From positions 33,130-97,129 of IMG/VR virus record IMGVR_UViG_3300014325_000010: a stretch of 64,000 nucleotides of DNA; one strand, given 5' to 3'. Position numbers and translations under genes: made by a program. Below, one piece after another: positions 13,464-37,633 of the stretch. The DNA is from a virus. The first letter of the stretch is position 1, and each line of letters starts with the position of its first letter. The notes beneath the pieces are model-generated. The model searched no databases. It was not told the DNA's origin and worked only from the letters and a program-made list of their open reading frames with translations.

Positions 13464-13862
13464 TTATCCGCGCTTTAGTCGAGCATTAATTCGACGTAGC
13501 ATGTAAGGAGCACTTGCAAATAGAACGGATTCGATAAATTTAGCTTGAGTTGGTGGTGCATGGTAGTTGTCTAATTTCTCATGCACGATTATGGCATAAG
13601 GAATGTCGGGGCCACCAGCAACCACACGAGTTGTAATTTTTCGCCCAATGAATGGACGTGTTGCATGAACACTATCACGTAATTGCCCAGGGTGAGGTGC
13701 ATCCGGTCTTAAATCCACTGGAGTGATTCGTGCACACTCTTCTGCTTCAATAACCGTTTCCTCAAATTGAGCTTCCGCAAACGCAGTGGGAAATCTTTGC
13801 GCAAGACTTCGTATCTTACGCTCCATTTCCACATTGCCTTTAACGGTTGCACCACTAGGCAT
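13464..13862 (-). CDS. HK97 gp10-like head-tail joining protein
   Basis: 132 aa. The N-terminal region (KGNVEMERKIRSLAQRFP...APHPGQLRDSV) matches the pattern I associate with the HK97 gp10 family. Position is consistent. Confidence 0.5.
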   Translation of the reverse strand: MPSGATVKGNVEMERKIRSLAQRFPTAFAEAQFEETVIEAEECARITPVDLRPDAPHPGQLRDSVHATRPFIGRKITTRVVAGGPDIPYAIIVHEKLDNYHAPPTQAKFIESVLFASAPYMLRRINARLKRG

Positions 13863-15087
13863 GGACTACATCCTCCAACTCAACTTTAGCAGACGGATCC
13901 AACGCCATCTCGGGATTTACTAACACCTCGTTGATCATTAATGCAAACATATTACCGAGGCTTTCCCAACGATACAGAGGATTATTCGCAAGTTTTAATC
14001 CAAGATCACGATATTTATTTCGAATTTCTTTACTGGTGTAAAAGAAATCCAGTGCTTCCAGAGTCTTCTGTTTGTCGGCAACACCACCAATAGTATTTAA
14101 CATTGGTGTCGTGTTTGTAGAAGTACACGGAATAAGATAAGCGGCATCTTTAGCCCAATCACCATACGCCGCCCAATCAGAAACAATTTGTGGAATCCCG
14201 CAAGCCATCCCCTCTATCGTAGGTAATCCAAAACCTTCACCTTGTGAAGTACTCCACATAACGTCTAACATCGAGTACATTTGAGCTATTCGTTGATCAG
14301 ACCAACCAACCCAGAAAGGTGGAATTGCTGTTAGAAGATGATTTGCAAGTACGACTCCGTATTTCTTAGAGTAGTAATTGGATAATTGTTCAATATCAAA
14401 TCCACTATCATCTGTAGGAGCTTGCTGTAAATAAAGAATTGCGTCATGAATATTTCGCGTTGCAATCCATTCAGCAAAATATTCAATATTGAGATCAAAA
14501 CGTTTTCGAGGGCCATTCCGATTCACATTGCCCACGATAAACGCGTCCAAAAGATTACCTACTAAACCAACATCTTTTCGAGCGGTAAGCCGATCTTGTG
14601 GTTTGTAGATATTTAGGTCTACTCCACAAGGTAGAATTGCGGAAGGACCCGTGTAGCCGCCATTAATTGCTTCTTGACGACCAAATTCTGTCCAAAAGAT
14701 TGCGAGAGACAATCCATTTAGTTTATCTCCTTGGCAATTCAAACTATCTACAGCAACGATTCCAATTACTGGAACGTCTTTCAGTCGCTTAAGATAAGAG
14801 GGAAAATTCCAAGGATCATTTTGGACAATAACCACATCTGGCTTAAAGGTCGCCAATAATTCAGCTATTCGAGGTTGTCCCGACCAATCTCCACCAAACA
14901 TAGCCGATTTAATTGGATATGGATATGCCGTAGGTGTATCACCATTGAAATTAATACCAAGCACCATAACGTCATACGGACCTCCAGGAGTTTCTCGGTA
15001 GTCTACACTGCGGAGAAGACCATGGGTGTTCTTAGCAAAGCCCGACGGACATCCAGCATCACCAATAAATAAAACTTTCTTTCTCAT
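13855..15087 (-). CDS. Glycosyltransferase, GT-B fold (GT1/GT4-like), inserted within the head-tail joining gene block
   Basis: 410 aa. C-terminal EGFGLPTIEGMACGIPQIVSD is the EX7E motif of retaining GT4-type enzymes. Start overlaps the upstream gene stop (15087) and its stop overlaps the next gene start (13855-13862), so it is translationally coupled to virion genes. Confidence 0.75.
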   Translation of the reverse strand: MRKKVLFIGDAGCPSGFAKNTHGLLRSVDYRETPGGPYDVMVLGINFNGDTPTAYPYPIKSAMFGGDWSGQPRIAELLATFKPDVVIVQNDPWNFPSYLKRLKDVPVIGIVAVDSLNCQGDKLNGLSLAIFWTEFGRQEAINGGYTGPSAILPCGVDLNIYKPQDRLTARKDVGLVGNLLDAFIVGNVNRNGPRKRFDLNIEYFAEWIATRNIHDAILYLQQAPTDDSGFDIEQLSNYYSKKYGVVLANHLLTAIPPFWVGWSDQRIAQMYSMLDVMWSTSQGEGFGLPTIEGMACGIPQIVSDWAAYGDWAKDAAYLIPCTSTNTTPMLNTIGGVADKQKTLEALDFFYTSKEIRNKYRDLGLKLANNPLYRWESLGNMFALMINEVLVNPEMALDPSAKVELEDVVHA

Positions 15088-16620: not shown

Positions 16621-17634
16621 TTACGCCATGTGGCAAATGCCCGAACGCCCTGCAGCTGATGCCTTGATAAGAGGCACACCAATCTGCCATGTCTTGAAGT
16701 TGATTCTGAATCCGCCAAGAGTGTCCCACTGGACGTTCTGAAGTGGTTCTCCTTGCACCCATTGGACAACGTCCGAAGTAGGCATAACCATGACGAGATT
16801 TGCCGCAGGAAGTTGGTCGACAACAGTGATGCTTTGCAGCCCCTCAACAGCCAACAGACGTTCACGAATAGTCTGTGTTCCGAGAGCCTTGAAGTCGTTG
16901 TCCAGAGGAATGTTCGCATCACGGCCGGTGTACAGCCAGTAAGGGCCATACATACGGTTATTCTGCAAACGGGTAATCATGGTAAGAACGTCTGTAAGGA
17001 AATCTGCGCCAGTCTTACCAGGGGTAGCCCAATTTCCACCAGTGAAAGAGGCAGTCAAACGACTTGGGTGAGTCGTGTAACCGTAGATCGGGAAACCAGC
17101 AAACGTCTTTCCACCCTGGAAAAGCATCTGTTCAGCCATCTCAGCCACTCGTCGACCAGCCTGACGCATATTCGACGTATCGAGAGGCTCTCCGCGCTCA
17201 CGCGATGCCACTAATGTACGAAGGTCGAGGAACCAATCTTTATGAGTGAGAGGGATCGGCAAGCTCGCCATGTCGAGTTCTTGCCGGTCATTCTCAGTCT
17301 GCGTTTGTCCGTCCAACGACACGGTCGCGATTCCCATGTCGGTGATTCGCTCGTATTGTAACATCGTCTTACCGAGCGAATTTGCGAGCGGACGAACAAG
17401 GCCCGCCCCGATCAGATCTTGGACACCTTTAAGAACAGTGAGTGCTTCTTGGACGACAACCTCATCAAAGAAAACCCACTCATCTTTCTGGAGAGTATCC
17501 AAGGTTCGAAGAATAGACGAATCCATTTTCCCAGTTTTAGCCGCCTTCAAAAACTGGTCAGCAGCCCATCTTCCGGACGTAGTCCGAATTAGGCTTGCTC
17601 CTGTGTCGACACTGGCCTCATCGTGCATTGTCAA
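16621..17634 (-). CDS. Major capsid protein (HK97 fold)
   Basis: 337 aa at the canonical position after the protease/scaffold and decoration genes. Composition and length typical of HK97-type capsid proteins. A hairpin followed by a T-rich tract lies downstream on the minus strand (about 16585-16606). Confidence 0.7.
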   Translation of the reverse strand: MTMHDEASVDTGASLIRTTSGRWAADQFLKAAKTGKMDSSILRTLDTLQKDEWVFFDEVVVQEALTVLKGVQDLIGAGLVRPLANSLGKTMLQYERITDMGIATVSLDGQTQTENDRQELDMASLPIPLTHKDWFLDLRTLVASRERGEPLDTSNMRQAGRRVAEMAEQMLFQGGKTFAGFPIYGYTTHPSRLTASFTGGNWATPGKTGADFLTDVLTMITRLQNNRMYGPYWLYTGRDANIPLDNDFKALGTQTIRERLLAVEGLQSITVVDQLPAANLVMVMPTSDVVQWVQGEPLQNVQWDTLGGFRINFKTWQIGVPLIKASAAGRSGICHMA

Positions 17635-17681: not shown

Positions 17682-18128
17682 TTACATGATCTCAACGCGA
17701 ATATTGGCGCGCACAACCGCAGTTGCATTAACGGATTCAAGAGCACGACCAATAATCACACCGGAACTATAGACCTTGAGGGTTCCGTCACCAGCGCTCT
17801 CCAAACGAGCGTTGATAGTGATATTCTGCCCCGACGCAATCCACGCCAGAACACGTTCGCCCTGCTTGAACGAACCAATTTTAACTGTGTCGCCAATTGC
17901 ATAATCAGACGAAACGGTACCAAGCACTTGGTAGGTATTATCGATACCAGCGCCAAGTTCCGATCGCTCCAATGCAAAAGTTCGAGGGCAAGCCGCACCA
18001 GCAGACGCGTGAGGTGCCACAGATAACACACCATCAACCAAATAGCCAGGCTTGATAGCTGCTGTAGCAACGCCATCCTCATTGATGAGAGGATCGCCTT
18101 TCAACGTGATAACTCTCTTTAGTGCCAT
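17682..18128 (-). CDS. Putative head decoration protein
   Basis: 148 aa, beta-rich and Gly/Val/Ala-rich, positioned between the protease/scaffold and capsid genes where DUF2190-type decoration proteins occur. Confidence 0.4.
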   Translation of the reverse strand: MALKRVITLKGDPLINEDGVATAAIKPGYLVDGVLSVAPHASAGAACPRTFALERSELGAGIDNTYQVLGTVSSDYAIGDTVKIGSFKQGERVLAWIASGQNITINARLESAGDGTLKVYSSGVIIGRALESVNATAVVRANIRVEIM

Positions 18129-18181: not shown

Positions 18182-20032
18182 TTACGAAGCCTTGGCCTGA
18201 CGAGCCGCCCGAACACGCTCGTTAAAGTTCGGCGGTGCAGGAACAGTTGTTGCATCCTCGGCGGTACGAGCTGTACCTCGACCCGAGAAATCAACAACGG
18301 GAGCCGGAATCTTGGCAATACGAGACATCCTCTCTAACTGAGGAAGTTCCATAGCCTTCAATTCATCTTCCGAATATTCGGACTGAGCCGACTTCATCAA
18401 AGTTACCAGCTCATTATGACGCGCAGTCTCCTGGGCTTCCTGCCGCGCAATCATGTCCTTCAGCCGTTGCGGAAGAACGGCCATAACCTCGGCCTCAGTC
18501 AAAGGCTCGTCAGCAACAGCCTTTGCGGCAGCAACTCGAGCAGTTTCGGCATCATCAAGAGCCTTCTTCGTCGCCGCGGCAACACGAGCATCCTCTGCAA
18601 TTTTTGCATCAGCCGCATCCTGAGCAGCCTTCTCTTCAGCCGTTTTCTGCGCAGTGCAATGGGCTTCGAGAGCTGCCAAAGTCTCGTCAGATGCCACTTC
18701 AAGCGCTTTCTGGTCTTTGACCAGATTGTGCTTGTTAGCCAGTAGTGCCGCAATTCTCTCAGTCTTCGTCATGTCAATTTCTCCTTCTACGGTTGGGGTT
18801 TGGGCGGACGCCGTAACAGGCGTCTTTCCGCCACAAGAACAAGCAGATTTCATAGGCTCTTTACACGTGGCACCAAGCGCAACTGAATGGTCGTGCATGG
18901 CTTGAATCTTTTCTTTCTGTCCAGCTGCTTCACGTGAATCAACAGTTGGATCACTAGACAAATCAACGACTTCAAACGTGGTGACCGGTTCCACTTCCAC
19001 TCGATTTGCATCGACAGTGTAACCTGCTGTTTCGTCACCAGTATAACCTCGTTGATACAAGCACATGCTACCACCGCCATAGGCGGAATAGACAACCCGA
19101 TCAGAATAGACGGCAACAATACTCCAGCAATCCGGTTCCATCTCTTGGAGCGCTTCCATCAATCCATCACGTACATCTTGATCGGATTCTGTGCCACTTA
19201 CTGAACCTCGTAAAACACCACGAATCGAGGATTTCAGCATATCAAAGAATTTAGAAGTCTTATTCTTTGGTTTTTCGATTGTCTCTGCTGCTTTTGGAGG
19301 ATCAGCGACGTCACTTGTCGTTTCGTCTGCCAATGGTCCAGTTTCCATATCTTCTCCTTTTGTCACTGGAGCACGTGCAGCACGTACACCGCACCCCATA
19401 TCACAACTACATGCGCCGGTGCTACCTTCTTGTAAGATAGCTAAGTGATCAGGAACAATATTTTTCCATTCTCCCTTGTATTCTGCACCTCGATAATTTC
19501 CCGTAGCCTCTTCGTCCATGTCAACGAAAACGCCAACAGAAACTTCAATTTCCTCGTCTTTGGATTTATTAAGAGCTTGCAATCTTTTGACAATAGCGGG
19601 ATCAACTTCATCCGCTTTTTCAACGTCGACCCAAGCTTCTAAGGTAAGCTTTTTCTTTTTGGCAGCAGTATGAAAGACTGTTCCAAAAGCGGCTTTTTCG
19701 AGGAGTTCGGGAGTATTTCCTGGGGTAGGATCGCCATCTTTTAATGGATGTCCGTAGAATAACGGACGCCCATTGAATCCTAAGACAGTCTTAGGATCTG
19801 AGAAAGTTTGTGCCGCCACAAACTCCGGTTCAGGTGCATTCATTGCCTGAATCACACCTTCAACCAACGCTGTGACAGGTGCTACCAGATGTCTACGTCC
19901 CATGTATTGCTCTTCTCGAAGAAGAGGGCCGAGAAGAGCAGTAATATGACGAGCAACACGGGGTGCCACTAAAAGATCGTCATCCTCTAAAACTGAGGTT
20001 TCAGTGGAAGCGAGGTCTAGTTTCATTGGCAT
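18182..20032 (-). CDS. Prohead protease - scaffolding fusion protein
   Basis: 616 aa. N-terminal globular domain (..FYGHPLKDGD..DHLAILQEGSTGACS..) followed by a long Ala/Glu/Lys coiled-coil C-terminus typical of scaffolds. Located just upstream of the decoration and capsid genes. Confidence 0.55.
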   Translation of the reverse strand: MPMKLDLASTETSVLEDDDLLVAPRVARHITALLGPLLREEQYMGRRHLVAPVTALVEGVIQAMNAPEPEFVAAQTFSDPKTVLGFNGRPLFYGHPLKDGDPTPGNTPELLEKAAFGTVFHTAAKKKKLTLEAWVDVEKADEVDPAIVKRLQALNKSKDEEIEVSVGVFVDMDEEATGNYRGAEYKGEWKNIVPDHLAILQEGSTGACSCDMGCGVRAARAPVTKGEDMETGPLADETTSDVADPPKAAETIEKPKNKTSKFFDMLKSSIRGVLRGSVSGTESDQDVRDGLMEALQEMEPDCWSIVAVYSDRVVYSAYGGGSMCLYQRGYTGDETAGYTVDANRVEVEPVTTFEVVDLSSDPTVDSREAAGQKEKIQAMHDHSVALGATCKEPMKSACSCGGKTPVTASAQTPTVEGEIDMTKTERIAALLANKHNLVKDQKALEVASDETLAALEAHCTAQKTAEEKAAQDAADAKIAEDARVAAATKKALDDAETARVAAAKAVADEPLTEAEVMAVLPQRLKDMIARQEAQETARHNELVTLMKSAQSEYSEDELKAMELPQLERMSRIAKIPAPVVDFSGRGTARTAEDATTVPAPPNFNERVRAARQAKAS

Positions 20033-20120
20033 GATGGTGGTAAACGTATCATTACCTATTTATCATCCAGAAAGCTAGTTCAAACGGAGGTGATTTTATA
20101 AATCATTTCTTCGTAATGTT

Positions 20121-21023
20121 CTATGATGCTTCTATTCGTTCCCAAAATTCCCCAACTATGTTTGACCAATCAAAAGTTGTTCTTACCTCTTCAAATTCTC
20201 TATCTGTGACAGGCAATTCTTTCTTCAGTACTTGTTCAATTGACGCAGTCACCTTCTCCGAACATTCTTCTGGAATAAACACTGCCCACTTATCAAACCA
20301 TTTACGATAGTGTGGTGCGTCAAACATAATTGGACGTGCACCACACATTAGTCCTTCAGCAGCAGGTAATTCAAATCCTTCGTCTCTACGAAGACCAGCT
20401 ACAAATCGAGAACGTGAATAAAGACTTGCCATCTCAAAATCTGGGATATTGAGTTTAGCAGTTGAGTGTGGCCCAATATGAAAATCAGGTCCAACCTGGA
20501 AATGTTTACCTTCGACTCGACGAACAGCTTCTGCACATTCTCGAATACACTCTGCATCAGGCACATAACCTGTAGTCAACATCGTAATGTCACGATCTCG
20601 TTTTCCGTTTCTATTGAATACAGAAGAATCAACACCAAGAGGTGCATAGTAAAATGGGAAATCATATGTTGGAGCAAATTTGGTCAAATCGAGATAGCTC
20701 CAAACTAAATCTGCATTAGTCCAAAGTGGTTTCCAAAAGTCTGGAACCGCTTGTTCTGTGCTCATTAAGCAACACTGCACAATAGCATAGCGCTGATCAT
20801 GTGCCATCTCGTTTTCGATTAACTTATCGATAGGTATATCAGCAAAATTACCAACTCCAACCACAATATGGACAATCAAATCGGCCATCTGTGGGTGTTC
20901 TACAATAGCTATATGTGATGGTGCATGCGCAGCTAAAGCAGTTGAAATTCGTTGTATACTTCTTGCAGGAATATCAGATTTAACGTAAGCTCTTAACATA
21001 ATCCAGCACTCGCCATTAGCCAC
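20121..21023 (-). CDS. Glycosyltransferase-like protein (GT-B C-terminal domain)
   Basis: 300 aa. RRDEGFELPAAEGLMCGARPIMFD is an EX7E-type motif. Confidence 0.55.
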   Translation of the reverse strand: MANGECWIMLRAYVKSDIPARSIQRISTALAAHAPSHIAIVEHPQMADLIVHIVVGVGNFADIPIDKLIENEMAHDQRYAIVQCCLMSTEQAVPDFWKPLWTNADLVWSYLDLTKFAPTYDFPFYYAPLGVDSSVFNRNGKRDRDITMLTTGYVPDAECIRECAEAVRRVEGKHFQVGPDFHIGPHSTAKLNIPDFEMASLYSRSRFVAGLRRDEGFELPAAEGLMCGARPIMFDAPHYRKWFDKWAVFIPEECSEKVTASIEQVLKKELPVTDREFEEVRTTFDWSNIVGEFWERIEAS

Positions 21024-21778
21024 TTCTTAGGATTTTTCTCTTCACTCCACACAAGCGGTTTTGCTGTTTCTCTACCTGCACAAATAGTACAAGCATCTAA
21101 GGGTTTTGCTTGTGTAAGATAAGCATGTAACGCAGATTCCGTTAGCCCATCAATCTTAATACCATCTGTACCAAATTCGCGATTTTGAATAAGCATTGGA
21201 ATATGAGGCCCACAACAACATGTAAAGAAATACCCATAACTGGCACACCTACTAAAATGACGGAAGAAACAACCATCGTATTTGGTTTGTGTTGCTGCTG
21301 GACTAGTTGGAACTGGTTCGAGCATTGTCATGAAATTTGGATTAAGTCTTTCATCTCGAGGTGAGTAGACTACTCCTTCATCTGCACATTTAGCAATAAT
21401 CCATTGAATATCTTGATCTGTCAATTTACCTGGATAGATTGACACAACAAGATGATCAAAAGATTTCCAAAATTCGGGGTATTGCCTCTTTAGCAACATC
21501 CCATTAGTCCATACTTCAGTAATGTCTGCTACCTGTGAATCACGTGCAATTTTAAGAATATCTACTAATTTGGCATTCATTAGGGGTTCACCACCAAGTG
21601 CACCCCATTTATCTGCATGCAAGATAGTTGCCATATGACTGAGATCTTTTTCAACTTGCTTAGGATCTGCAGACCATGGGCCGCGTTCCCGCCATAGTGG
21701 AACACTGTGATTACAACCAATGCAGGATAATTGACAAGCTTGAGTAATATCAGTTTCGAGGTGAGGAATACGTATCAT
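20993..21778 (-). CDS. Radical SAM enzyme with C-terminal Cys cluster (SPASM/twitch-like)
   Basis: 261 aa. CQLSCIGC is a CX3CX2C radical-SAM motif near the N-terminus. Additional Cys-rich C-terminal segment (FFTCCCGPH...CTICAG). Confidence 0.7.
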   Translation of the reverse strand: MIRIPHLETDITQACQLSCIGCNHSVPLWRERGPWSADPKQVEKDLSHMATILHADKWGALGGEPLMNAKLVDILKIARDSQVADITEVWTNGMLLKRQYPEFWKSFDHLVVSIYPGKLTDQDIQWIIAKCADEGVVYSPRDERLNPNFMTMLEPVPTSPAATQTKYDGCFFRHFSRCASYGYFFTCCCGPHIPMLIQNREFGTDGIKIDGLTESALHAYLTQAKPLDACTICAGRETAKPLVWSEEKNPKKWLMASAGLC

Positions 21779-22137
21779 ACACCACTATCCGAACAAAAAG
21801 TCCACATACCGGCGGTAAGATATCCATGAAATTTACAACCATCTAATCTTCGAATAGATGGTTGAAGTGTGGGTTTTTCTCTATTTCCATCCCATTGCCA
21901 ACATCGTTCAAGTTTCTCACCTGTAGCAATAGGTAGGCTCATTAATTCACCACAGCCACAAGGACAGATATAAATAATGGAACTATATGGCCCAATTCCA
22001 TTATCTGCAAAATTATAAGCACCAGGTGTTTCATTATCCCAGATATGGTCTACTTTTGAAGCTTGGACTGGATCAATCATATTAGCTTTCTTTGATTGAA
22101 TGAAACCAACTTCGAATTTTGACCCACCATATTGCAA
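21775..22137 (-). CDS. Cys-rich small protein (zinc-ribbon-like), conserved phage hypothetical
   Basis: 120 aa with ICPCGCGE and CWQWDGNREKPTLQPSIRRLDGCKFHG motifs. Start/stop overlap with the radical SAM gene. Confidence 0.45.
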   Translation of the reverse strand: MQYGGSKFEVGFIQSKKANMIDPVQASKVDHIWDNETPGAYNFADNGIGPYSSIIYICPCGCGELMSLPIATGEKLERCWQWDGNREKPTLQPSIRRLDGCKFHGYLTAGMWTFCSDSGV

Positions 22138-22308
22138 TAAATGCTGGAATTCTAATTCTAATAAAACAAACAGCCTTCAATTTGCCTAATTCCCAAGTTT
22201 CACATAATTCGACAGGCTCTGTTTCAAAAGAGTCACGCCAAAGAAATAAGCTGCCAGTTGGCCAATCATTAGGTTCTTCTAATTCTTTTGTACCATCACG
22301 GTAATATT

Positions 22309-23535
22309 TCATGCACGTACCACTCCAATCCCACCCCAATCACCATGAACTGTAATTTCAATTTTATCCACCATATTAAGATCATGCCAGAAACGAGGCA
22401 CTCCACCAGCTTCAGCTTCCGAGAAGTGGCGAGCATCAGCATTAATATCATGGAAGGCAATAAAGCCTCCGGGTTTGACTATTGTCTTATAAAACGCATA
22501 GTCAGAAGCTACACCTTGATAAGAATGATCTCCATCAATAAAAAGAAAATCTAAGAATTTTCCTGTTAATAATTCCAAGACTTTACACCTTACAGATGTG
22601 TCTTGTGATTTACCGTAAATACTTCTAAAACGAGGGAATCGTTTTTCCAACGCATTTATTTTATCATCAATTCCAATCACGAGACCGCTACAAAGATCAT
22701 GCCATAGGGCACTAGTGCCCCCACGATGGACACCAATTTCTAATACATCCACTGGACTCTGCGCTCGAACTATTTTGGTTAAGGAGCTTATTTCTTTAGA
22801 ATGTTGCTCCATTGGAATATCCGGTGGAAATATACTAGCATTCTGTTTAATCACATCGTAATAATCTGCTCTTTCGAATACGTCTAATTCAGAATCAGGA
22901 GTGACATTAACAATACTCATTCCTTGACGACGAGCATTAAGAAATGATTTTCGCATACGTTCGGGTTGAGGTGGAAAAGATCTTGATCCTTTTGGCCAAT
23001 AATTTTTGTCAAAGTGGTTATCATCTTGACTGCCTGTAATCCATTCAATCTCTTCTTCATTATAAGAATCATCCACTAATGCTTTTCGCATAATATGAGA
23101 CTTATTCCATTTGAAATCATTACCAAGCAAATAGGCAGAACTACAACCCATATAAGCAGCAAGTTGTAGCATCATATACATAACTGTTCCACCAAAATAA
23201 AATGGTGGTTCAATAGAATATTTCTCACAAGCTAGATCACGAACAAAGGGAGTCTTACAATATTCACCTTTAAACGGAATGTCATCTGCTACAAATTTGA
23301 TTGATCCGACAAATTCTTCAAAACCTTTACCCCACTGTTCATAATCGAGGAGGTCCTCCAACGCCCAATACGTTGTAGGAAATCCAAGTTTTTCAAACAG
23401 TAAGTACCCTCGATTACACGAAAAGGTGATCTCCGATTTAAGACCACTCAAGTCCATCGAGGCGAGGCTAGGACCACTTCCTAATAGAAAGCAACGTTGT
23501 CCTAGATGGCGATTGTGAAAATCTGTAATAGTCAT
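22309..23535 (-). CDS. Two-domain protein: Maf/DUF115-like (putative nonulosonic-acid-type glycosyltransferase) N-terminal domain fused to a CmcI-family SAM methyltransferase
   Basis: 408 aa. N-terminal CFLLGSGPSL glycine loop as in DUF115/motility-accessory-factor proteins. C-terminal LEIGVHRGGTSALW...FLFIDGDHSY...GGFIAFHDI matches the CmcI/rhamnosyl-O-methyltransferase class I methyltransferase pattern. Confidence 0.65.
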   Translation of the reverse strand: MTITDFHNRHLGQRCFLLGSGPSLASMDLSGLKSEITFSCNRGYLLFEKLGFPTTYWALEDLLDYEQWGKGFEEFVGSIKFVADDIPFKGEYCKTPFVRDLACEKYSIEPPFYFGGTVMYMMLQLAAYMGCSSAYLLGNDFKWNKSHIMRKALVDDSYNEEEIEWITGSQDDNHFDKNYWPKGSRSFPPQPERMRKSFLNARRQGMSIVNVTPDSELDVFERADYYDVIKQNASIFPPDIPMEQHSKEISSLTKIVRAQSPVDVLEIGVHRGGTSALWHDLCSGLVIGIDDKINALEKRFPRFRSIYGKSQDTSVRCKVLELLTGKFLDFLFIDGDHSYQGVASDYAFYKTIVKPGGFIAFHDINADARHFSEAEAGGVPRFWHDLNMVDKIEITVHGDWGGIGVVRA

Positions 23536-23984
23536 TGGAGCCTTGCAATTGCTTTTTTAACGTGGAAGTCTGTTAAACCAACGTCCCATTTGGTTTTAAT
23601 CAAAGCTTCACGTAAGTTTCCCATGTCACTGTCGTCATCTAGAATAACAAATTTTTCGGCTCCATGCTTGGCTAGCCACTTTTGAATTTCGCTACCTCGT
23701 GGTTCATTGGTAAGAAAGGGTGTTGATCCTATAATACTCCCTCTAACACCAGCTTGTTGTAAAATTTTCTTCACGTTCCAAAATCGTCGCCATGTGGATG
23801 AAATAACAATAACGGAATCTGTCGCGTGTGTGATCTTATTAAGTCTCCTAACCGCCATAGGATCAATCCAAGTTCGGCCAGCTTTTTTGGGCCATCTACG
23901 GATATTATTCATTACGCCATCAATATCTAAAAATACAACTTTCATACACGTGCACCCATCATTGTATAAGCCGCTCGCACACAA
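23532..23984 (-). CDS. HAD-superfamily phosphatase (small, sugar-phosphate phosphatase-like)
   Basis: 150 aa. VVFLDIDGVMNN has the DxDGV HAD motif I. Downstream acidic ILDDDSD is a motif IV candidate. Confidence 0.6.
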   Translation of the reverse strand: MCASGLYNDGCTCMKVVFLDIDGVMNNIRRWPKKAGRTWIDPMAVRRLNKITHATDSVIVISSTWRRFWNVKKILQQAGVRGSIIGSTPFLTNEPRGSEIQKWLAKHGAEKFVILDDDSDMGNLREALIKTKWDVGLTDFHVKKAIARLQ

Positions 23985-25135
23985 AATTCGTCAATTTCAG
24001 CAGGAGTAACAGCTAAATTTGGTCGAAGTCGAACACACTTTTCACCTGTAGGAATCATAATAGTTGCAGATCCCCACATGGCTTCAACAAAATAGTCACG
24101 TTCCGAACGACTTTCAAAATCAATGGCTAGAAGTAAACCCACACGACGACATTTTAATCCTAGACTGATTAATCTTTCTTCGAGGAGCTGACCTTTCGTT
24201 TCCACACTTTGTAAGATTTTTTCTTTTTCGTATACTTCGAGGATTGCTCGACAACGAATCATGTCCATGACATCACCGTCCCAAGTAACTTCAAGACGTG
24301 CTGGATCATCAAAAATCTTACTAAATTGTGTCTTAACCATAATCCCAGATACTTGTGTCTTTTTACCAAAGACTACAATATCTGGTACGATACCAATTCG
24401 TTCAAAATACCACATAGAACCTGTTCCACCAAATCCTGTTTGAATTTCATCAAAGATTAGTGGAATACAATTTTCACTGCACAGCTTACGTAATTCCAGA
24501 ATTAATGCAGTATTAAATACAAGATCTCCAGATGTACATTGAATTGGTTCAATCAGAATACCTGCAATATTACCAGATTTTACATAGGTAGTACATTGTT
24601 TTAGCAAAAGTTCAATATTTTGTGCATTTGGATTAGCCACTTCACAAGAATTGCTAGAGTAAAAACCAGCAAGTCTTTTTGATGCCGGACCAGTTCTAGA
24701 AGCTAGGAATCCACCATACCCATTGATACCATGAAAATTATTTGTGAATATAAGCATTTCGCCATGGTGTCTCAAAATAGCAGTTTTAACCGCTGCTTCA
24801 ATAGCTAATGCTCCGGTACAACAGAAATGAAAATAAGCAAATTCTGCCATTGATGGATGTAATGTAAATGCTGAAATAAATTTTTCAGCTTCCAAACTAT
24901 CCATTTCACAGTTTGCCACCTTCACAGTGGAGTGTAAAAACATCTCATTGATATATTCCACTTTATGGAATATTGGATGATTATAACCAATAGGTAAAGA
25001 AGAATACATACCAAAGAAATCTAAAATCTCTCGCTGTGTATTAACATCATATACATAGGAGCCATGACTTTTAGATAAGTCAGCTTTAATATTGAATTTA
25101 GATGAACGATGAGATTGTTTAATCATGATACACAT
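23942..25135 (-). CDS. PLP-dependent aminotransferase, class III-like
   Basis: 397 aa. IFDEIQTGFGGTGSMW and VVFGKK (candidate Schiff-base Lys) are hallmarks of class III aminotransferases. Confidence 0.7.
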   Translation of the reverse strand: MCIMIKQSHRSSKFNIKADLSKSHGSYVYDVNTQREILDFFGMYSSLPIGYNHPIFHKVEYINEMFLHSTVKVANCEMDSLEAEKFISAFTLHPSMAEFAYFHFCCTGALAIEAAVKTAILRHHGEMLIFTNNFHGINGYGGFLASRTGPASKRLAGFYSSNSCEVANPNAQNIELLLKQCTTYVKSGNIAGILIEPIQCTSGDLVFNTALILELRKLCSENCIPLIFDEIQTGFGGTGSMWYFERIGIVPDIVVFGKKTQVSGIMVKTQFSKIFDDPARLEVTWDGDVMDMIRCRAILEVYEKEKILQSVETKGQLLEERLISLGLKCRRVGLLLAIDFESRSERDYFVEAMWGSATIMIPTGEKCVRLRPNLAVTPAEIDEFCVRAAYTMMGARV

Positions 25136-26195
25136 GTATTACTTTGTCTCGACTAACTGCGAGACGGGTTGCTCGACTATCTCCAGTAACTGTGATTTGA
25201 TGCCATGTACCTCGAGGGATAGAAATGATATCTCCTTTATTTGCGATTATCTTTTTATCTTCAATTACGTACTCATATTGACCTTCGAGAATTAACCACC
25301 ATTCATCCCAGTCTGGATGATAATGACGTCGATTACCTTCTTTTGGTAATTGGCTAATAACTGTCGCCGAATTACTTGGTTTCTGTATTACACGTCTTGC
25401 TCCACCATTTACAGGCAAATCGGCAAGTAGTTGGTCTAGATTAATAGAATTCTGTACTGATAAGTCAATGTCTCCAACACCATCATGATACAATACTTCT
25501 ACCGCGTTAGATTCAGAGTGTTCTGTTGGGGACCAATAGCGATTGATTGCGCGTGATTTACGTCTTTCGAGAATAGCTTCTGCCAGTTCAAAATCTCCCT
25601 GTGTGTCAATGTCTAATGCAGAATCTCCATCTAAAACTAGATGAGAAACTCTACCAGAACTATAACCATAGGTACTTGTAAAATCCTTCCACGCAAAAAT
25701 CCCATTACACATAATGTCTATAGGACGTAGTTGTTGCGATGGTAACATTGGTTTGAATGGATTAAAGTTGGTAGGGGTTCCTTGAATAAAAGCTTCTGCA
25801 TAGAGACGTTTTACTGATAAAACTGTATTAGCACCATCAAGGATTAGATCTCTGGCACGATGTAGATCAATTCGAGAAAGAAATGGGGAGGTTGGTGTGA
25901 TCTGGAATAAAACATCACACGGAACATCTTCTAAAAAACTTGGGATAAAATGTTCACTTGTAGCAGAGTCCACAGCTAATTCTGGTTGACGATGATAAAA
26001 CTTGACACCCAAAGATTTAGCAAGATCTCCTAAGATATCTGCTTCAGAATTAATATAAACCTCATCAAATATTTTAGAATCTCTAGCTGTTTCAACTACC
26101 CAAGAAATTAGAGGTTTATCTCCTAAGAATCGAAGATTCTTAAGTGGAATTCTTGTACTACCAAGACGTGCAGGAATCATAGCCACATATTTCAT
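25119..26195 (-). CDS. CMP-sugar cytidylyltransferase (CTP_transf_3: KdsB/NeuA/PseF-like) fused to a C-terminal cupin domain
   Basis: 358 aa. N-terminal MKYVAMIPARLGSTRIPLKNL is the acylneuraminate/CMP-Kdo cytidylyltransferase signature. C-terminal HYHPDWDEWWLILEGQYEY...GDIISIPRGTWHQI is a cupin two-motif pattern. Confidence 0.7.
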   Translation of the reverse strand: MKYVAMIPARLGSTRIPLKNLRFLGDKPLISWVVETARDSKIFDEVYINSEADILGDLAKSLGVKFYHRQPELAVDSATSEHFIPSFLEDVPCDVLFQITPTSPFLSRIDLHRARDLILDGANTVLSVKRLYAEAFIQGTPTNFNPFKPMLPSQQLRPIDIMCNGIFAWKDFTSTYGYSSGRVSHLVLDGDSALDIDTQGDFELAEAILERRKSRAINRYWSPTEHSESNAVEVLYHDGVGDIDLSVQNSINLDQLLADLPVNGGARRVIQKPSNSATVISQLPKEGNRRHYHPDWDEWWLILEGQYEYVIEDKKIIANKGDIISIPRGTWHQITVTGDSRATRLAVSRDKVIHVYHD

Positions 26196-26839
26196 TCGAG
26201 TACCACCCGACCTTGTTGTGATCCTTCTAGAAAAATTTCGTAACCAGATTTGTAAAGAAGTTCTACCGTTTGAATACGCATTAACTCATGAGTTGGAGGA
26301 TGCCATTCAATAAACAACTTTGGTTTATTCTTTAGTGCTTTAGTCATTCCTTTGAACGCTAAATCCTCAGCTCCCTCGATATCCATTTTTAGAATGTCAA
26401 CTTTAGTGTCTTGTAGAATTTCATCTAGTGTAGTTGTATCAACTGTAAATCGAAAACCTACACTGTGATAACAGCCTTCAAACGAAAGTGATACACCAAC
26501 ATCTGGTTTAATCGCTTCACGTTTTACAGAACTATCAGATACTGCTAATGGGTAAATTTTCACATTTGGATAGGATTTCATCCAATTTTGCAGTAGTTCA
26601 AATCGTATTCGTTCGGGTTCAAAAGCAATTATTTGAATATCAGGTGGGCCATATTTTAATGCAAGACTGATGTAAAATCCGTATTCCGCACCACAATCTA
26701 CATAAACTTTAGCCGTTTTAATTCTATGGATAAATTGAGAAGTAAATGATTCCCATCTAATATTTGATTGTTCACGACCAGTTACCATTGATGAAAGAAT
26801 ATCATCAATAGCTGCTAACCCAAATTCTCGTTCAGTCAT
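26192..26839 (-). CDS. FkbM-family SAM methyltransferase
   Basis: 215 aa. VYVDCGAEYGFY and DILKMDIEGAE motifs. Confidence 0.65.
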   Translation of the reverse strand: MTEREFGLAAIDDILSSMVTGREQSNIRWESFTSQFIHRIKTAKVYVDCGAEYGFYISLALKYGPPDIQIIAFEPERIRFELLQNWMKSYPNVKIYPLAVSDSSVKREAIKPDVGVSLSFEGCYHSVGFRFTVDTTTLDEILQDTKVDILKMDIEGAEDLAFKGMTKALKNKPKLFIEWHPPTHELMRIQTVELLYKSGYEIFLEGSQQGRVVLE

Positions 26840-26842
26840 AAA

Positions 26843-27301
26843 TTACAGTGGTTGCTTAACCCACACCCAATGACCTTCACCAAATCCAACTCGATAGTAA
26901 TTTTGATAATCTGGTGGTTTTACCTTAACACGTTCACCTGTTTCATTAGCTTCTATTAGAGTCCAACCATTAGCATTTAACACAGGTTCGAGGGATAATA
27001 GTGTGTTTTGCCCAAAGGGCATACCGACAGTTATTTGTCGAAACCATGTTTCTGGATTTATTTCTCCTGGCACATAAATTGGAATAGCAGAATTTGCAGA
27101 CGCACCTGCAGTTGATTCAACTTCTGAAGTTTCTGGTTTAGACGATTCTTTTTCCGCTTGTGGTTTAGAAGGCACGATTCCTCCAAAATCTAATTTTGTT
27201 AATTCACCATTTTCTTCAGACCATAACGTGAATGGTGCTTCTTCACTATCTGTCCAAGAAGCAATAGTAACACCATTAGAATTTTTTAACATGATCTTCA
27301 T
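26843..27301 (-). CDS. Hypothetical protein
   Basis: 152-aa ORF within the sugar-gene block. Acidic/Ser-rich middle. Confidence 0.4.
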   Translation of the reverse strand: MKIMLKNSNGVTIASWTDSEEAPFTLWSEENGELTKLDFGGIVPSKPQAEKESSKPETSEVESTAGASANSAIPIYVPGEINPETWFRQITVGMPFGQNTLLSLEPVLNANGWTLIEANETGERVKVKPPDYQNYYRVGFGEGHWVWVKQPL

Positions 27302-27908
27302 CGTAGCTCCTTACCATAAATGAGCAGTAAACCCAGTGTAACATCATCATACTAACATCTTCAGCTAACGCCGGATTATCAGTACCCAACACTATTTTCA
27401 AATGTGCATACTCTGAGACAGATCCTTTATTACCAACAATTGCAACAGATCTCATTCCACGTTCGTTAGCCCGTCGAATAGCCTTGGCTAGATTTTTACT
27501 ACACCCTGAAGCAGATACTGCAATAAAGAGATCATATTCTTTTGCTAAAGCAGATAATTGTATCGCAAACATATCTTCATAACCAAAATCATTTACAGCC
27601 GCTGATAGCATCATACCTGCATTAAGCGAATAAGCTCTATTACAATATCCAGTTTCACGCAAAATATTTAAAGACATCCCTAGTGCAAAATGATCTGCTA
27701 CTGTAGCTCCGCCACCATTTCCAGCAATAAATATTGTATTCTGTTTTTCGTGGGTTTCCTTCACAATTTGCCGAAGTTTTTCGGCATCTGCAGATGGAAA
27801 CCGTTTTGTAATTTCTGCGATAGCAGCAAAATAGTCATCACAGGTTTCGTTAATTACCATTGCTGTAAGGCCTCCCAATCTGGCGTCCACGGAATACCTC
27901 CGTCCCAC
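27276..27908 (-). CDS. SIS-domain sugar-phosphate isomerase (GmhA/KdsD-like)
   Basis: 210 aa. IFIAGNGGGATVADHFALGM and DLFIAVSASGCS match phosphoheptose-isomerase-type SIS motifs. Confidence 0.7.
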   Translation of the reverse strand: MGRRYSVDARLGGLTAMVINETCDDYFAAIAEITKRFPSADAEKLRQIVKETHEKQNTIFIAGNGGGATVADHFALGMSLNILRETGYCNRAYSLNAGMMLSAAVNDFGYEDMFAIQLSALAKEYDLFIAVSASGCSKNLAKAIRRANERGMRSVAIVGNKGSVSEYAHLKIVLGTDNPALAEDVSMMMLHWVYCSFMVRSYDEDHVKKF

Positions 27909-28567
27909 GGTGCTACTAATTTTACCATATGACCTTTATAAGCATCTTCTGGTAATGAAAACGGTTTCATATTCCCGGTACCATATCCTGGGCTGTAATT
28001 GTCATACACAGCAGCAATAGCACTTCTGGTTTCATAATCCTTAATCACAAATTTGTGATGTTCAATAGTAACCGGTGCTCGTTCACCACCTCCAAAAGGA
28101 GATCCAGCGTGAACACCAAAACGGTCACCAGATTTTGCTTTAATTGACAAACGGGTTTGATAATCTGGGAATAATTGTGGAGTCATAAGCACGGACTTAC
28201 AATGATCCCACATATGCGCTCGAGGAAATTCCCAATGATCCTGTTCTAGCCAACAATTATTAATTAGCCATTTTTCCATTGCAGGAGAAAGAGCCTCGTC
28301 ATCATCTATTCGCAGAATATAGTCTCCCTCACAATAAGCTAACGCTGAATTTAGGGAACTTTCAAGATATCCCTTAGATTTAACACATGCTATTTTCAGA
28401 TCAGCATTTGGTATATTAAGGGAGACTGCTTGATCAAATGCCATCGTTCCATCAGTGATCAAGACAAATTCTGTTGACTCTAATTTATCTGCTAATTGAG
28501 CAAGTTTTAAAATGAATGGTCTTGCACACCATTCCATTTTAGATATGCACAGAATGCTTAATTTCAT
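27854..28567 (-). CDS. Glycosyltransferase, GT-A fold (GT2-like)
   Basis: 237 aa. N-terminal Rossmann-like segment and DxD-type YILRIDDDE. Confidence 0.55.
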   Translation of the reverse strand: MKLSILCISKMEWCARPFILKLAQLADKLESTEFVLITDGTMAFDQAVSLNIPNADLKIACVKSKGYLESSLNSALAYCEGDYILRIDDDEALSPAMEKWLINNCWLEQDHWEFPRAHMWDHCKSVLMTPQLFPDYQTRLSIKAKSGDRFGVHAGSPFGGGERAPVTIEHHKFVIKDYETRSAIAAVYDNYSPGYGTGNMKPFSLPEDAYKGHMVKLVAPWDGGIPWTPDWEALQQW

Positions 28568-28648: not shown

Positions 28649-29017
28649 TTACGGAGCAGTTGCCTTCTGTGTTATAAAATTTCCCCAAGCAAGAACTGTT
28701 TCACTGCCGTCATCCATTCGTTTCCAGCTATGTCGATAAGTCCCTGCTTTGAATTTATTCATATCCTCATCAGTAACAACGACGATTGCCCGTTGTGTAT
28801 TTGCACTGCGAGTTGCACTGTAAGTACCAGTGATTGTTGGAGTAAAACTTAAAATTGGTGGTGAAGGTGAAGCATCTAATTTACGTACATCAAATCTGAG
28901 TACCCACCCCGTCATATTGATAGGCACTAAATTTAAATCAATAAGTTCCAATCGAAACGTCTTATCTTCTCCAACAAACAGAACTCCATCTCCGCCAATA
29001 GGTGCATCTAGAGCCAT
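28649..29017 (-). CDS. Hypothetical protein, translationally coupled to the giant repeat protein
   Basis: 122 aa. Start codon overlaps the stop of 29017-33588. Confidence 0.45.
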   Translation of the reverse strand: MALDAPIGGDGVLFVGEDKTFRLELIDLNLVPINMTGWVLRFDVRKLDASPSPPILSFTPTITGTYSATRSANTQRAIVVVTDEDMNKFKAGTYRHSWKRMDDGSETVLAWGNFITQKATAP

Positions 29018-32000
29018 TAGACTTCCTCCCCTCCTACGATATCGATCGTTTCTACCACAGTTCCAATTGCATCTATCACAGTTTGTGAACTACCAACCAC
29101 ATCGATAATGCCTGATTGATACTGACCTAAAATATCAATCGTAGTTATATAGCTCCCAACCACATCGATTATTGTTTGATAAGAACCAATTACATCAATC
29201 GTAATTGGTGTTCCTGCACCAACAGGACCATCCTTAATCCGTAAAGATTCAATGAGTATAACTTCAAGATCTCGAGAAGCTTGAACCGAATCACTAATCT
29301 TTATTGTTTCAGAAGTAATTTCAGTTACAATACTATCGATGTATATGACAACAATATCAGCTATCGCAACATTTTCTATAGCAAGAACACTAAGATCAAT
29401 TCCAACAATTACTGTGTCATGAACTTGAAGATTTTCATCTTGCACCCGAAGTTCAAGTGGATTGATCTCTGTGGTAACAGTATCTTGAATCTTAACTGCT
29501 TCCGTCAGTAAACTCGAAATATCCGCAGTAATTAGTGCTGAAACTGAATCAACAACTTTAACAGTTTCATTTATTGATGCAATTTCGGGATTTAAGACAA
29601 CCGTAATATCGTCAGAGATTTTTAAAGATTCTGTGACACTAGTTATTTCACCAAGAGAAGGTGTAAGTGAATCAGATACTTTAACCGATTCACTAAGATT
29701 AGCAGAAAGATCAATACTGACTAAAATTGTATCAGCGACTTTAAGTGATTCAGTCTGCGTTACTGAAATGTAATCAACAGCAGCTTGAACCGAATCAGCT
29801 ACTTTGACTGATTCAGAAATATTAGCTGTAAGATTAACAGTTATTGAAGCAGTAACCGTGTCAACAACTTTAACAGATTCCGTTAATGTTGTCTGCTCTG
29901 GATTGATCAGAGTAGAAACTGTATCAGCAACTTTAACTGATTCAGATTGACTTGTTTCCTCCGGATTAAGAATAACACTAATCGTATCTGCGATTTTAAC
30001 AGATTCGATTTGTGTTATCTGTTCTGGATCTAAAGTTACCGAAACACTGTCTGCAACTTTTAGCGACTCACTTTGAGTTGTTTGTTCAGGATTAAGAACT
30101 GTAGAAACAACATCTGTAATCGAAAGTGGTTCTGTAAGTGAAGTCTGCTCAGGATTTATGAAAGCCAATACAGTGTCTACGACTTTAACCGAGTCGATTA
30201 AGAGAACTGATTGCGAATCAATCAGAGCCGTAATCGTATCAACAACTTTAAGATTCTCAGATTGAGTCGTTTGTTCTGGATCTAAAGTCGTTGAAATAGT
30301 ATCAGCAACTTTTATCGAGTCAGATTGTGAGGTTTCCTCGGGATTTAACGTTGTCGCGGCAAGGTCAACAACTTTGAGAGATTCTGTAAGCGAAATCTCT
30401 TCTGGATTTAATGTGGCAGCTACAGAATCAGAAACTTTCAAGGTTTCTGTTTGTGCAGCTTGTTCCGGATCTAAGGTTGTGAAGACGCTATCAACAACCT
30501 TTAGAGCTTCTGATTGTGAAGCTTGTTCTGGATTTAAGAGTGTGCTAACATTATCAGAAATTTTTACATTTTCAATTACGGAAGTCTGTTCGGGGTCTAA
30601 CGTAACCGAAACACTGTCCGCAACTTTAAGTGATTCCGTTAGTGAAACAATTTCATCGAGGATAGCAGTGACACTGTCCGCAACCTTGATCGTTTCAGTA
30701 CTAGACGCTTGTTCTGGATCTAATGTTGTTGTGACAGTGTCAACAACTTTAATTGGCTCTGTTTGTGAAGTCTGCTCCGGATCTAAAACAGTATTAACAC
30801 TGTCTACGACTTTGAGCGATTCAATAACTAATGTTTGTTCAGGATTTAGTGTAGTTGCAACCGTATCACTTACACTAAGATTTTCTTCGAGATAAATAAA
30901 GTCTGGATTTAGACGAGCATTAACTGGACCATCAGCAATTTGAATCGATTCGTTAGAAATTAAAGTGCCGGCACCTATAGAAGCCGCAATACTATCAACA
31001 ACTGAAAGTGATTCAGCAGGAACAGCTACCGGCCGCGGATTTTCGTCCGCAATTGGTGTATCTTGAACAATTACGTTTTCAGTAAGGGATACGTCAATAT
31101 CTCTCGAAACAGTGACCGTGTCACTAATTACAAGTGCTTCCTGAACAGAAGTCTGTTCGGGATTCAAGCTTGTCGAAGGAGTGTCAACTACCCTGAGCGA
31201 TTCTGTTTGTGTGGTTTGCTCTGGATTAAGTGTTGTTGATACGCTATCTGCAACTTTTAACGACTCTGTCAGTGAAACGAGTTTGTCAAGAATCGCAGTA
31301 ACAGTATCTGCGACTTTTAAGGATTCAGTCTGTGTGGTCTGTTCGGGATCTAAAGTCGTGATTACAGTATCAACGACTTTAAGCGATTCTGTCTGTGAAG
31401 CCTGCTCTGGATCTAATATTGTGAATACGGAGTCAGCAACTTTTACTGATTCAGATAGAGAAACAATTTTGTCGAGATCAGCAGTAACAGTGTCTGCAAC
31501 TTTTAATGATTCTGTTTGTGTGGCTTGCTCTGGATCTAAAGTAGTGAAAACGGAATCAACAACTTTGAGAGAATCACTCTGTGACGTCTGTTCGGGATTA
31601 AGAAGTGTTAAAACACTATCGGCAACTTTGACTGGTTCCGTTAGTGAAACAACTTCATCTGTGATAGCAGTAACAGTGTCAACAACTTTTAATGAATCAC
31701 TTAACGAACTTTGTTCTGGATCTAAAGTAGTTGTTACAGTGTCAACAACTTTAAGAGAATCTGTAGCAGAAGTTTCCTCCGGATTAAGGAATGCGAGAAC
31801 AGTATCTGCTACTTTAACTGGTTCTGTTAACGAAGTTTGCTCGGGATTTAAAGTTGTAAGAACAGTATCAGCAACTTTGAGAGCTTCTGTTACAGTAGCT
31901 TGCTCTGGATCTAAAGTCGTCGAAACGGTATCAACGACCTTTAAAGAATCCGAAGTTGAAGTCTGTTCAGGATCTAAAGTAGTTGAAACTGAGTCTACAA

Positions 32001-37409: not shown

Positions 37410-37633
37410 AATTTGTCTTCGTCCGCTAGTACAACTTTATTTTCTTTTAACACAGCATATACATGTTGATAAATGTCTGCTATGCTCGTACAACCTAGAA
37501 TTGCTGCTCGACGGTATCCTTCTTCTTTTAATGGAGCACATCTTTCACATGCCCAAAACATACTAGCGGTCCATTCATTGCACCACCAGCATCTATGCAT
37601 GTTTGTATTCCCCGATGCGCTCGAGCCAACCAC
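37406..37633 (-). CDS. Small zinc-ribbon protein
   Basis: 75 aa, CWWCNEW...CERC. Confidence 0.35.
   Translation of the reverse strand: MVGSSASGNTNMHRCWWCNEWTASMFWACERCAPLKEEGYRRAAILGCTSIADIYQHVYAVLKENKVVLADEDKL

Follow-up and report, generated by a model that had tools for sequence, protein, structure and literature searches.

A SpeY-like twitch radical SAM protein in a predicted phage glycan module and its BubE/DUF6527-like neighbour

A 64,000-nucleotide stretch of viral DNA (IMG/VR record IMGVR_UViG_3300014325_000010, positions 33,130 to 97,129; referred to below, at its full length, as the window) encodes a radical S-adenosylmethionine (SAM) protein of 261 amino acids (aa) at 20993..21778 and, overlapping it, a small cysteine-rich protein. 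Both open reading frames (ORFs) proved real; they are found on the minus strand, like every other gene of this region. An original prediction, made from the letters of the sequence, had taken them for a possible maturase and its partner or substrate, or alternatively had the radical SAM protein act on a sugar. The present analysis points, with moderate confidence, to a radical SAM enzyme with a twitch domain, of the SpeY/HygY/BtrN kind, which serves in a phage glycan module, most likely one decorating virions, and to a BubE-like protein which is a separate accessory. Both proteins belong to known families (SpeY-type twitch radical SAM and BubE/DUF6527, respectively) and it is their setting that is unusual. 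The main result is corrective in that the reading of the pair as an enzyme and its cysteine-rich substrate is wrong.

Family and fold of the radical SAM protein

The assignment of the 261-aa protein was based on motifs, homologues and a structural model. The CQLSCIGC motif, correctly recognized in the original prediction as a radical SAM signature, supplies the three cysteines of the CX3CX2C arrangement (C15-x3-C19-x2-C22), which is invariant among 115 homologues. The GGEP motif (G62-G63-E64-P65), a SAM-binding motif of the GGE type, is likewise invariant in the family alignment. The C-terminal part of the protein carries CCCGPH at C187-189 and CTIC at C230/C233; C187, C188, C230 and C233 are invariant in the 115 homologues, and C170 and C189 are present in 114 of them.

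A search of the PDB sequences gave a sole strong match, 7wzv (E 5.7e-23), which extends over residues 7-236 and includes all four C-terminal cysteines of the auxiliary site discussed below. The model built by AlphaFold2 (AF2) on the 115 homologues (predicted local distance difference test, pLDDT, 97.1) superposes on the cores of radical SAM enzymes, with their partial TIM barrel. In Foldseek its top match was again 7wzv, entitled 'Twitch Radical SAM Dehydrogenase SpeY' (template modelling score, TM, 0.84; root-mean-square deviation 2.4 A; E 5e-22; 26% identity). BtrN was the second structural match, and MoaA, BlsE and the viperins scored much lower. A profile search of 1.84 billion representatives retrieved 4899 proteins with E <= 1e-3, of which 164 reached E <= 1e-30. 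The best 150 library representatives were combined with the SpeY fragment and the window protein into a family-profile alignment of 152 rows, across which only four C-terminal cysteines are conserved: C170, C187, C230 and C233 occupy their columns in 146-150 rows and all align with cysteines of SpeY. C188 and C189 are extra cysteines specific to the phage family.

A twitch domain contains three or four cysteines and one auxiliary [4Fe-4S] cluster, and a SPASM domain seven or eight cysteines and two clusters (PMC9477430). Since the four conserved cysteines align with those of SpeY and no SPASM model of Pfam or NCBIfam matched the protein at E <= 0.1, the C-terminal cysteines are predicted to bind an auxiliary Fe-S cluster as in twitch, and not SPASM, domains. 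SPASM/TIGR04085-type membership, for which an HMM search had originally been proposed, was rejected on the same grounds. Of the suggested SPASM or twitch resemblance only the twitch part has therefore stood, and the CCCGPH...CTIC cluster, although a real site, had been listed without C170, its fourth ligand-type cysteine. The view that such clusters mark peptide- or protein-modifying maturases found no support, the closest twitch enzymes being small-molecule enzymes by their PDB titles (SpeY a dehydrogenase, BtrN bound to 2-DOIA). The larger relatives of the phage protein are fusions with methyltransferase, GT28 or chorismatase domains, not with peptide-binding domains.

Two other assignments were tried and rejected. 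A viperin-like protein was suggested solely by matches to the generic N-terminal core (NCBIfam, PADLOC), with a TM of about 0.45. The TM to MoaA was about 0.4, and the name 'cyclic pyranopterin phosphate synthase' carried by some family members is an annotation artefact.

Gene neighbourhood and spread of the radical SAM family

Loci for comparison with the window, labelled with L-numbers (L001, L046, L052 and so on), were drawn from metagenome look-ups, viral contigs, metagenome contigs and genome contigs, and their ORFs were searched with the window proteins and the family profiles. There were 36 distinct radical SAM loci, found through the radical SAM protein itself and so forming a sample biased to close relatives; a gene was counted as a neighbour if it lay within 4 kb, and a locus as informative if it had enough flanking sequence.

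The most constant neighbour is a gene family for a 237-aa protein resembling GT-A glycosyltransferases (GT), found near the radical SAM gene in 23 of the 25 loci with sufficient upstream sequence. Two loci seem to be devoid of it; they are those two that have an inserted cassette, and in them the GT-A-like gene lies further off. A GT-B-like gene accompanies the radical SAM gene in 21 of the 26 loci with sufficient downstream sequence and a CmcI-type methyltransferase gene in 15 of 25 informative loci. The frequency was 2/25 for a class III aminotransferase and equally 2/25 for the BubE-like gene.

The radical SAM family comprises 197 clusters in the metagenome protein collection and is almost confined to uncultured phages. 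The single match among 185,579 species genomes came from a 37-kb contig of a metagenome-assembled genome bearing the same capsid genes. In a tblastn search of 50,697 phage records no full-length relative was detected, and the only hit was a 30%-identity N-terminal match in Cronobacter phage CR5; megablast of the 20000-27500 segment against the same records gave no match. The viral structure library held no close relative of the protein (best TM 0.71 at 14% identity). The exact-sequence look-up of the window protein returned nothing, though the L052 contig encodes an identical protein.

Predicted chemistry: dehydrogenase or epimerase

By analogy with SpeY and BtrN, its closest solved relatives, and because its conserved neighbours encode glycosyltransferases and methyltransferases, the radical SAM protein most likely oxidises or epimerises a sugar. 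Action on a sugar was the second option of the original prediction and is the one now supported. In the proposed mechanism the N-terminal [4Fe-4S] cluster (C15/C19/C22) would cleave SAM bound by the GGEP motif, and the 5'-deoxyadenosyl radical would take a hydrogen atom from a carbinol carbon of the sugar. A second [4Fe-4S] cluster, predicted to be fully cysteine-ligated (C170/C187/C230/C233), would accept the electron to leave a keto-sugar. The ketone could then be aminated in phages having a class III aminotransferase, the window phage included, and methyltransferases and glycosyltransferases would complete and attach the glycan. The radical SAM reaction would thus be one step among those of the GT-A-like protein, the CmcI-type methyltransferase, the GT-B enzyme and a GT4 enzyme, a module which the window would expand by a cassette for a cytidine monophosphate (CMP)-linked sugar.

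Of the two reactions, that of a dehydrogenase (sugar CH-OH to C=O) is favoured, since serine and not cysteine fills the column where SpeY has serine (column 176 in the numbering of the window protein, whose own residue is S176). Cysteine stands at this column in 99 of the 152 rows of the profile alignment and serine in 12, SpeY among them; in the phage family serine is found in 107 of 115 members, asparagine in 6 and cysteine in 2. In SpeY, Ser183 is said to lie opposite SAM at the substrate carbon, and its replacement (S183C) reportedly makes SpeY an epimerase, in a 2022 JACS study by Zhang et al. HygY reportedly has cysteine at this place and loss of that cysteine is said to unmask dehydrogenase activity, in a 2021 JACS study by Besandre et al. 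The title of the HygY paper itself speaks of a twitch radical SAM epimerase and a single-cysteine switch.

The alternative that the protein epimerises a sugar as HygY and NeoN do, in which case the thiol of C188, of C189 or, in the sub-lineage of the window, of C178 would return hydrogen to the opposite face, appears somewhat unlikely but is the strongest of the competing explanations. It gains from the prevalence of cysteine at column 176 in most relatives (99/152), from the rarity of ketone-using enzymes, which are missing from most loci, and from C188 and C189, both invariant or nearly so and peculiar to the phage family. The hydrogen donor of NeoN, Cys249, is located elsewhere in the protein (PMC10991966), and the sub-lineage of the window has a cysteine at 178, two residues away from column 176. 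The prevailing serine at column 176 of the phage family is, however, shared with SpeY, a dehydrogenase according to its PDB title. C188 is unlikely to be the switch because it remains cysteine irrespective of whether serine or cysteine is found at 176, and C178 is not conserved, the residue being valine in 80 of 115 members.

Several points weigh against the reading of the protein as a SpeY-type dehydrogenase of a virion glycan pathway with an independent BubE-like neighbour. The PF04055 profile scores the protein at 23.8 bits, under its gathering cut-off of 29.5, and covers residues 11-113 only. The protein is nevertheless a radical SAM member, a divergent one that this profile under-detects; some members of its family have a precomputed PF04055 match, and the NCBIfam models match residues 5-125 only. 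The pairwise alignment around column 176, with which the profile alignment agrees, has a low posterior of about 0.4, one of the reasons to take the epimerase alternative seriously. Column 176 is, moreover, only presumed to correspond to Ser183 of SpeY and Cys183 of HygY: the serine aligned there in 7wzv is residue 203 of the chain and presumably equals 183 if a 20-residue tag is assumed. As family-specific residues, C188 and C189 could be hydrogen donors and make the enzyme an epimerase. In L053 a variant with cysteine at 176 is encoded beside an aminotransferase, at odds with a simple rule that cysteine means epimerase, and the occurrence of an aminotransferase in only 2/25 loci leaves the fate of a keto-product elsewhere unexplained. 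The overlap between the BubE-like stop and the radical SAM start leaves room for a lineage-specific functional link. Finally, what the analysis shows is to which families the proteins belong, how they fold, which residues are conserved and which genes surround them; the substrate, the choice between the two chemistries, the virion as target and the role of the BubE-like protein are inferred.

Compact at 261 aa, modelled with confidence and naturally variable (Ser/Cys/Asn) at the putative dehydrogenase-epimerase switch, this SpeY-related family is a convenient test bed for the switch rule.

The glycan module and its position in the virion block

Immediately downstream of the radical SAM gene and forming its conserved partner is the gene for a 292-aa protein (20121..20999, minus strand), identified from its model and neighbourhood as a compact GT-B, GT4-like glycosyltransferase. 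The model (pLDDT 96) has a compact GT-B fold and its top matches are all GT4-type transferases, the best ones including a mycobacterial mannosyltransferase, BshA, MshA and PglA. On the upstream side, the minus-strand gene 22309..23535 encodes an N-terminal domain with a weak match to MptE/Maf proteins, fused to a CmcI/Methyltransf_24 methyltransferase; the methyltransferase half matches the methyltransferase of about 198 aa found upstream of the radical SAM gene in most loci. In the 237-aa GT-A/GT2-like protein (27854..28567, minus strand) an invariant R-x-D-D-D-E motif falls, when aligned, on the DXD region of GT2 enzymes, a weak but recurrent resemblance, with 8 of 19 members matching PF00535.

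Between the GT-A-like gene and the methyltransferase gene a six-gene sugar-activation cassette (23532..27908, minus strand) is inserted. In order of coordinates, all on the minus strand, it encodes a HAD phosphatase (23532-23984), a lysine-epsilon-aminotransferase-like class III aminotransferase (23942-25135), a CMP-sialic-acid-synthetase-like cytidylyltransferase fused to a cupin (25119-26195), an FkbM methyltransferase (26192-26839), a 152-aa protein without assigned function (26843-27301) and a SIS-domain isomerase (27276-27908). The cassette occupies this position in the window, L001, L046 and L052 only. The Maf/MptE-like domain fused to the methyltransferase belongs to it, and the methyltransferase gene is separated from the radical SAM gene by a 76-aa gene and the BubE-like gene. 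The cassette resembles a pathway for CMP-activated ulosonic acids, and no sugar-acid synthase gene was seen.

In other phages the gene order is capsid, GT-A-like, methyltransferase, radical SAM, GT-B-like, a gene of about 400 aa, and tail. In the window a GT4-family glycosyltransferase of 410 aa (13855..15087, minus strand) is encoded between head-completion and tail genes. Its counterpart in L003 is the protein of about 400 aa encoded after the GT-B-like gene, with a weak Glyco_trans_1_4 match; the 400-aa gene product at the same position in L004 had no Pfam match. In L008, L010, L021 and L045 the GT-B-like match lies within an ORF of about 2.1-2.3 kb (about 700-750 aa) just after the radical SAM gene, which suggests a GT-B-like protein fused to a second domain, possibly the GT4 enzyme. 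The order in a sister locus, L053 (1152-5103), is cupin, a 186-aa gene, class III aminotransferase, radical SAM (with cysteine at 176) and GT-B-like, and the end of the aminotransferase gene overlaps the start of the radical SAM gene. The link between radical SAM and aminotransferase genes therefore recurs independently of the lineage of the window.

In every locus examined the module is situated inside the head-tail block, where it shares the orientation of the capsid and tail genes and is closely packed with them, and in the window the genes on both sides of the radical SAM gene overlap it. On the same minus strand the glycan genes are followed directly downstream by the virion block, which encodes a protease/scaffold-like protein of 616 aa (18182-20032), a head protein of 148 aa (17682-18128) and the HK97-type major capsid protein (16621-17634). 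The head module of the window also contains, on the minus strand, a gene for a DUF4082 protein (41517-42620) and one for a second CmcI-type rhamnosyl O-methyltransferase (37593-38357), so that there are more glycan-related genes among the structural ones.

Maf-type domains together with CMP-sugars serve in the O-glycosylation of flagellin, which is a protein. Mycobacteriophage sets of glycosyltransferases and O-methyltransferases modify capsid and tail tube proteins (PMC11600133, PMC12619734). On account of these two parallels and of the location in the head-tail block, the module most likely decorates virion proteins.

A different target, either DNA of the phage, in the form of glycosylated hypermodified bases, or the envelope of the host cell, is in our estimation unlikely. 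Glycosylation of DNA and changes of host serotype are known activities of phage glycosyltransferases (PMC12619734), the virion glycan is here deduced from gene context, and the window, as part of a phage genome, may be complemented by base-modification genes elsewhere. Against this stand the placement of the module within the head-tail block at every locus examined, same-strand and tightly packed, the combination of a Maf/MptE-like domain with a CMP-sugar synthetase in the window, and the ORFs scanned in the window, among which no hydroxymethylase or DNA-kinase-type gene was found. The mycobacteriophage sets, too, act on proteins, those of capsid and tail tube (PMC11600133).

If this account of the module is true, a sizeable clade of uncultured phages employs radical chemistry to tailor a sugar of a glycan that they would most likely attach to their own virions. 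In the consulted part of PMC11600133, phage glycosylation sets consist of glycosyltransferases and an O-methyltransferase alone.

The small protein is a BubE/DUF6527-like domain

In the order of the coding strand the small gene is upstream of the radical SAM gene, and its TGA shares the ATGA at 21775-21778 with the radical SAM ATG. The original prediction had it overlap the radical SAM stop; it is the start of the 292-aa glycosyltransferase-like gene that does so (ATGTTAA, 20993-20999). The frame is open up to a TTG at 22137, which gives the 120-aa reading (21775..22137) with the CPCGCGE, CWQWDGN and GCKFHG motifs. In this reading the gene overlaps, in a different frame, the minus-strand gene for 76 aa (22082..22312) which lies between the Maf/methyltransferase gene and the BubE-like gene. 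Close homologues of the small protein have 98-102 aa and start at the residue matching the ATG at 22080. In the near-identical contig L052, whose radical SAM protein is identical to that of the window at 261/261 positions, an independent gene call gave consecutive products of 408, 76, 101, 261 and 292 aa. As the homologue starts and this gene call agree, the TTG start is probably wrong and the real gene is probably 21775..22080 (minus strand), of 101 aa; the motifs originally reported are thus real and the length of 120 aa probably is not. No Pfam match was obtained for the window 76-aa protein, and its counterpart in L001 matches DUF7427 weakly.

The small protein matches PF20137 (DUF6527) with 65.6 bits, at a cut-off of 23.6, over the whole length of the profile (residues 53-115), and also PHROG families of unknown function. 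The DUF6527 domain of bacterial Bub operons, BubE, has been described as a new serine protease with a C4 zinc finger (C57/C59/C61/C99) and a Ser92-His102 dyad, which cleaves fusions of ubiquitin-like proteins (Ubl) and Ubl-target conjugates (bioRxiv 10.1101/2024.11.21.623953). In the 120-aa numbering the corresponding residues of the small protein are the zinc cysteines C58/C60/C62/C101, Ser94 and His104. The elements C-P-C-G-C, P-S-I and H-G are invariant in 14 homologues, the serine and histidine included. Judged by these residues, the small gene encodes a folded domain of the BubE/DUF6527 family in which both the Ser-His dyad and the C4 zinc site are intact, and its cysteines would form the structural zinc site of a small enzyme, leaving no modifiable core peptide. 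A match to ATG4 (E 0.16) was rejected as a chance cysteine/tryptophan pattern.

The pairing of the BubE-like and radical SAM genes recurs in L001, in L052 and in a 1912-bp contig with P0002 and P0121. In L046 an HNH/AP2 gene stands between the two. BubE-like genes also occur at loci without a radical SAM gene: in L047 between the portal and a GIY-YIG gene, in L048, L049 and Thiobacimonas phage vB_ThpS-P1 between the genes for the small and large terminase subunits, in the early region of Caulobacter phage Sansa, and in Rhizobium and Rhodovulum phages. That the small cysteine-rich protein is the substrate or obligate partner of the radical SAM enzyme, as a maturase-precursor pair resembling that of a peptide made by ribosomes and modified after translation (a RiPP) or as a protein maturase with its client, is highly improbable: the ATGA overlap in the window and the three related contigs speak for it, but the protein is a conserved enzyme domain whose cysteines would form a C4 zinc site, only 2/25 informative radical SAM loci have it, a homing-endonuclease-type gene splits the pair in L046, homologues are found in unrelated phages with no radical SAM gene at the locus, the very finding that the original prediction had named as counting against a pair, and the nearest solved relatives of the radical SAM protein act on sugars or cyclitols. 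Most simply, the BubE-like protein would be an independently acquired accessory peptidase, neither a substrate nor an obligate partner of the radical SAM protein.

BubE-like genes are repeatedly found inserted in operons for packaging and structure, in two cases next to homing-endonuclease-type genes, which suggests a mobile gene. These homing-endonuclease-type genes lie directly downstream of the BubE-like genes, at 8288-9013 in L046 (HNH_3/AP2) and at 5947-6474 in L047 (GIY-YIG). The scanned ORFs of the window gave no match to a Ubl, E1 or E2 domain, and none is listed for the phage loci L047-L049. A speculative role for such lone phage BubE/DUF6527 proteases, that of the window included, and one that we consider rather improbable, would be counter-defence, in which ubiquitin-like tags of the Bub/Bil type added by the host would be stripped from virion proteins. 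Such a role would explain the small inserts in packaging and structural operons, the intact Ser-His dyad and the missing Ubl/E1/E2 partners. In L048 (8458-10156), Acb2/Tad1-hairpin and Tad2-like anti-defence genes were noted 4-6 kb downstream of the BubE-like gene. The proteases of BubE type, studied so far just in bacterial Bub operons, circulate as lone phage genes, which raises the anti-defence hypothesis.

Other features of the window

The minus-strand ORF at 29017-33588 encodes 1523 aa without a Pfam match, and a 679-aa ORF runs antisense to it (31181-33220, plus strand). GC skew flips its sign across 30-34 kb, unlike in the remaining minus-strand operon. A protein with a response-regulator receiver (REC) domain is encoded at 44447-45052 (minus strand), immediately upstream of the portal gene (42963-44432). 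Between 50000 and 54000 there is a GC-rich island (0.55 vs 0.37-0.47 elsewhere in the window) with overlapping ORFs on both strands and no Pfam or Rfam match. The scan for promoters and terminators gave counts equal to or under those in shuffled sequence, and Rfam and tRNA scans yielded no matches.

Comparison with known systems

SpeY of spectinomycin biosynthesis (7WZV/7WZX/7X0B) is the best sequence and structure match of the phage radical SAM protein. The two share the CX3CX2C motif, the four cysteine positions of the auxiliary cluster, and serine at a column which is cysteine in most relatives. They differ in that their identity is about 26%, the phage protein has 261 aa and the SpeY chain 322 aa, and the phage protein has CCC where SpeY has C-P-Q, as well as an extra conserved C-terminal tail (W244, W253, S257). 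The phage gene stands beside glycosyltransferase genes, whereas SpeY comes from an actinomycete antibiotic cluster, and the substrate of the phage protein cannot be the same as the aminoglycoside sugar of SpeY.

HygY and NeoN, epimerases of aminoglycoside pathways, resemble the phage protein as radical SAM enzymes of a kind acting on a sugar carbon. What distinguishes them from dehydrogenases is a hydrogen-donating cysteine, the single-cysteine switch in the title of the HygY paper and Cys249 in NeoN (PMC10991966). Unlike these two, which were compared by description and not by sequence, the phage family has serine and not cysteine at the switch column in 107/115 members.

BtrN, the twitch 2-deoxy-scyllo-inosamine dehydrogenase (PDB 4M7T), is the second-best structural match and has the dehydrogenase chemistry favoured here. 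In contrast to the phage protein it acts on a cyclitol, in butirosin biosynthesis, and the two are related only at a TM of about 0.53 and 13% identity. The ketone made by BtrN is subsequently used by an aminotransferase, which parallels the presence of radical SAM and class III aminotransferase genes in the window and in L053.

The small protein has in common with BubE of Citrobacter the CxCxC...C zinc site and the Ser-x6-Cys-x2-His arrangement, with a spacing equal to that of C57/C59/C61/C99 and S92/H102. It differs from BubE in being phage-encoded and stand-alone, with no Ubl, E1 or E2 encoded among the window ORFs scanned, and in its N-terminus (MIDPVQASKVDHIWDNETPG...), which by eye is unlike the hydrophobic extension of BubE; its peptidase function is predicted from the residues.

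The glycan module resembles virion glycosylation in mycobacteriophages (Freeman et al. 2023, cited in PMC11600133) in being a phage-encoded set, there of tandem glycosyltransferases and an O-methyltransferase, which modify capsid and tail tube proteins. The mycobacteriophage sets, in the consulted part of PMC11600133, are described with no radical SAM enzyme, whereas one is present here. The genes described here are intercalated in the head-tail block of uncultured phages, where they would most likely serve the glycosylation of virions.

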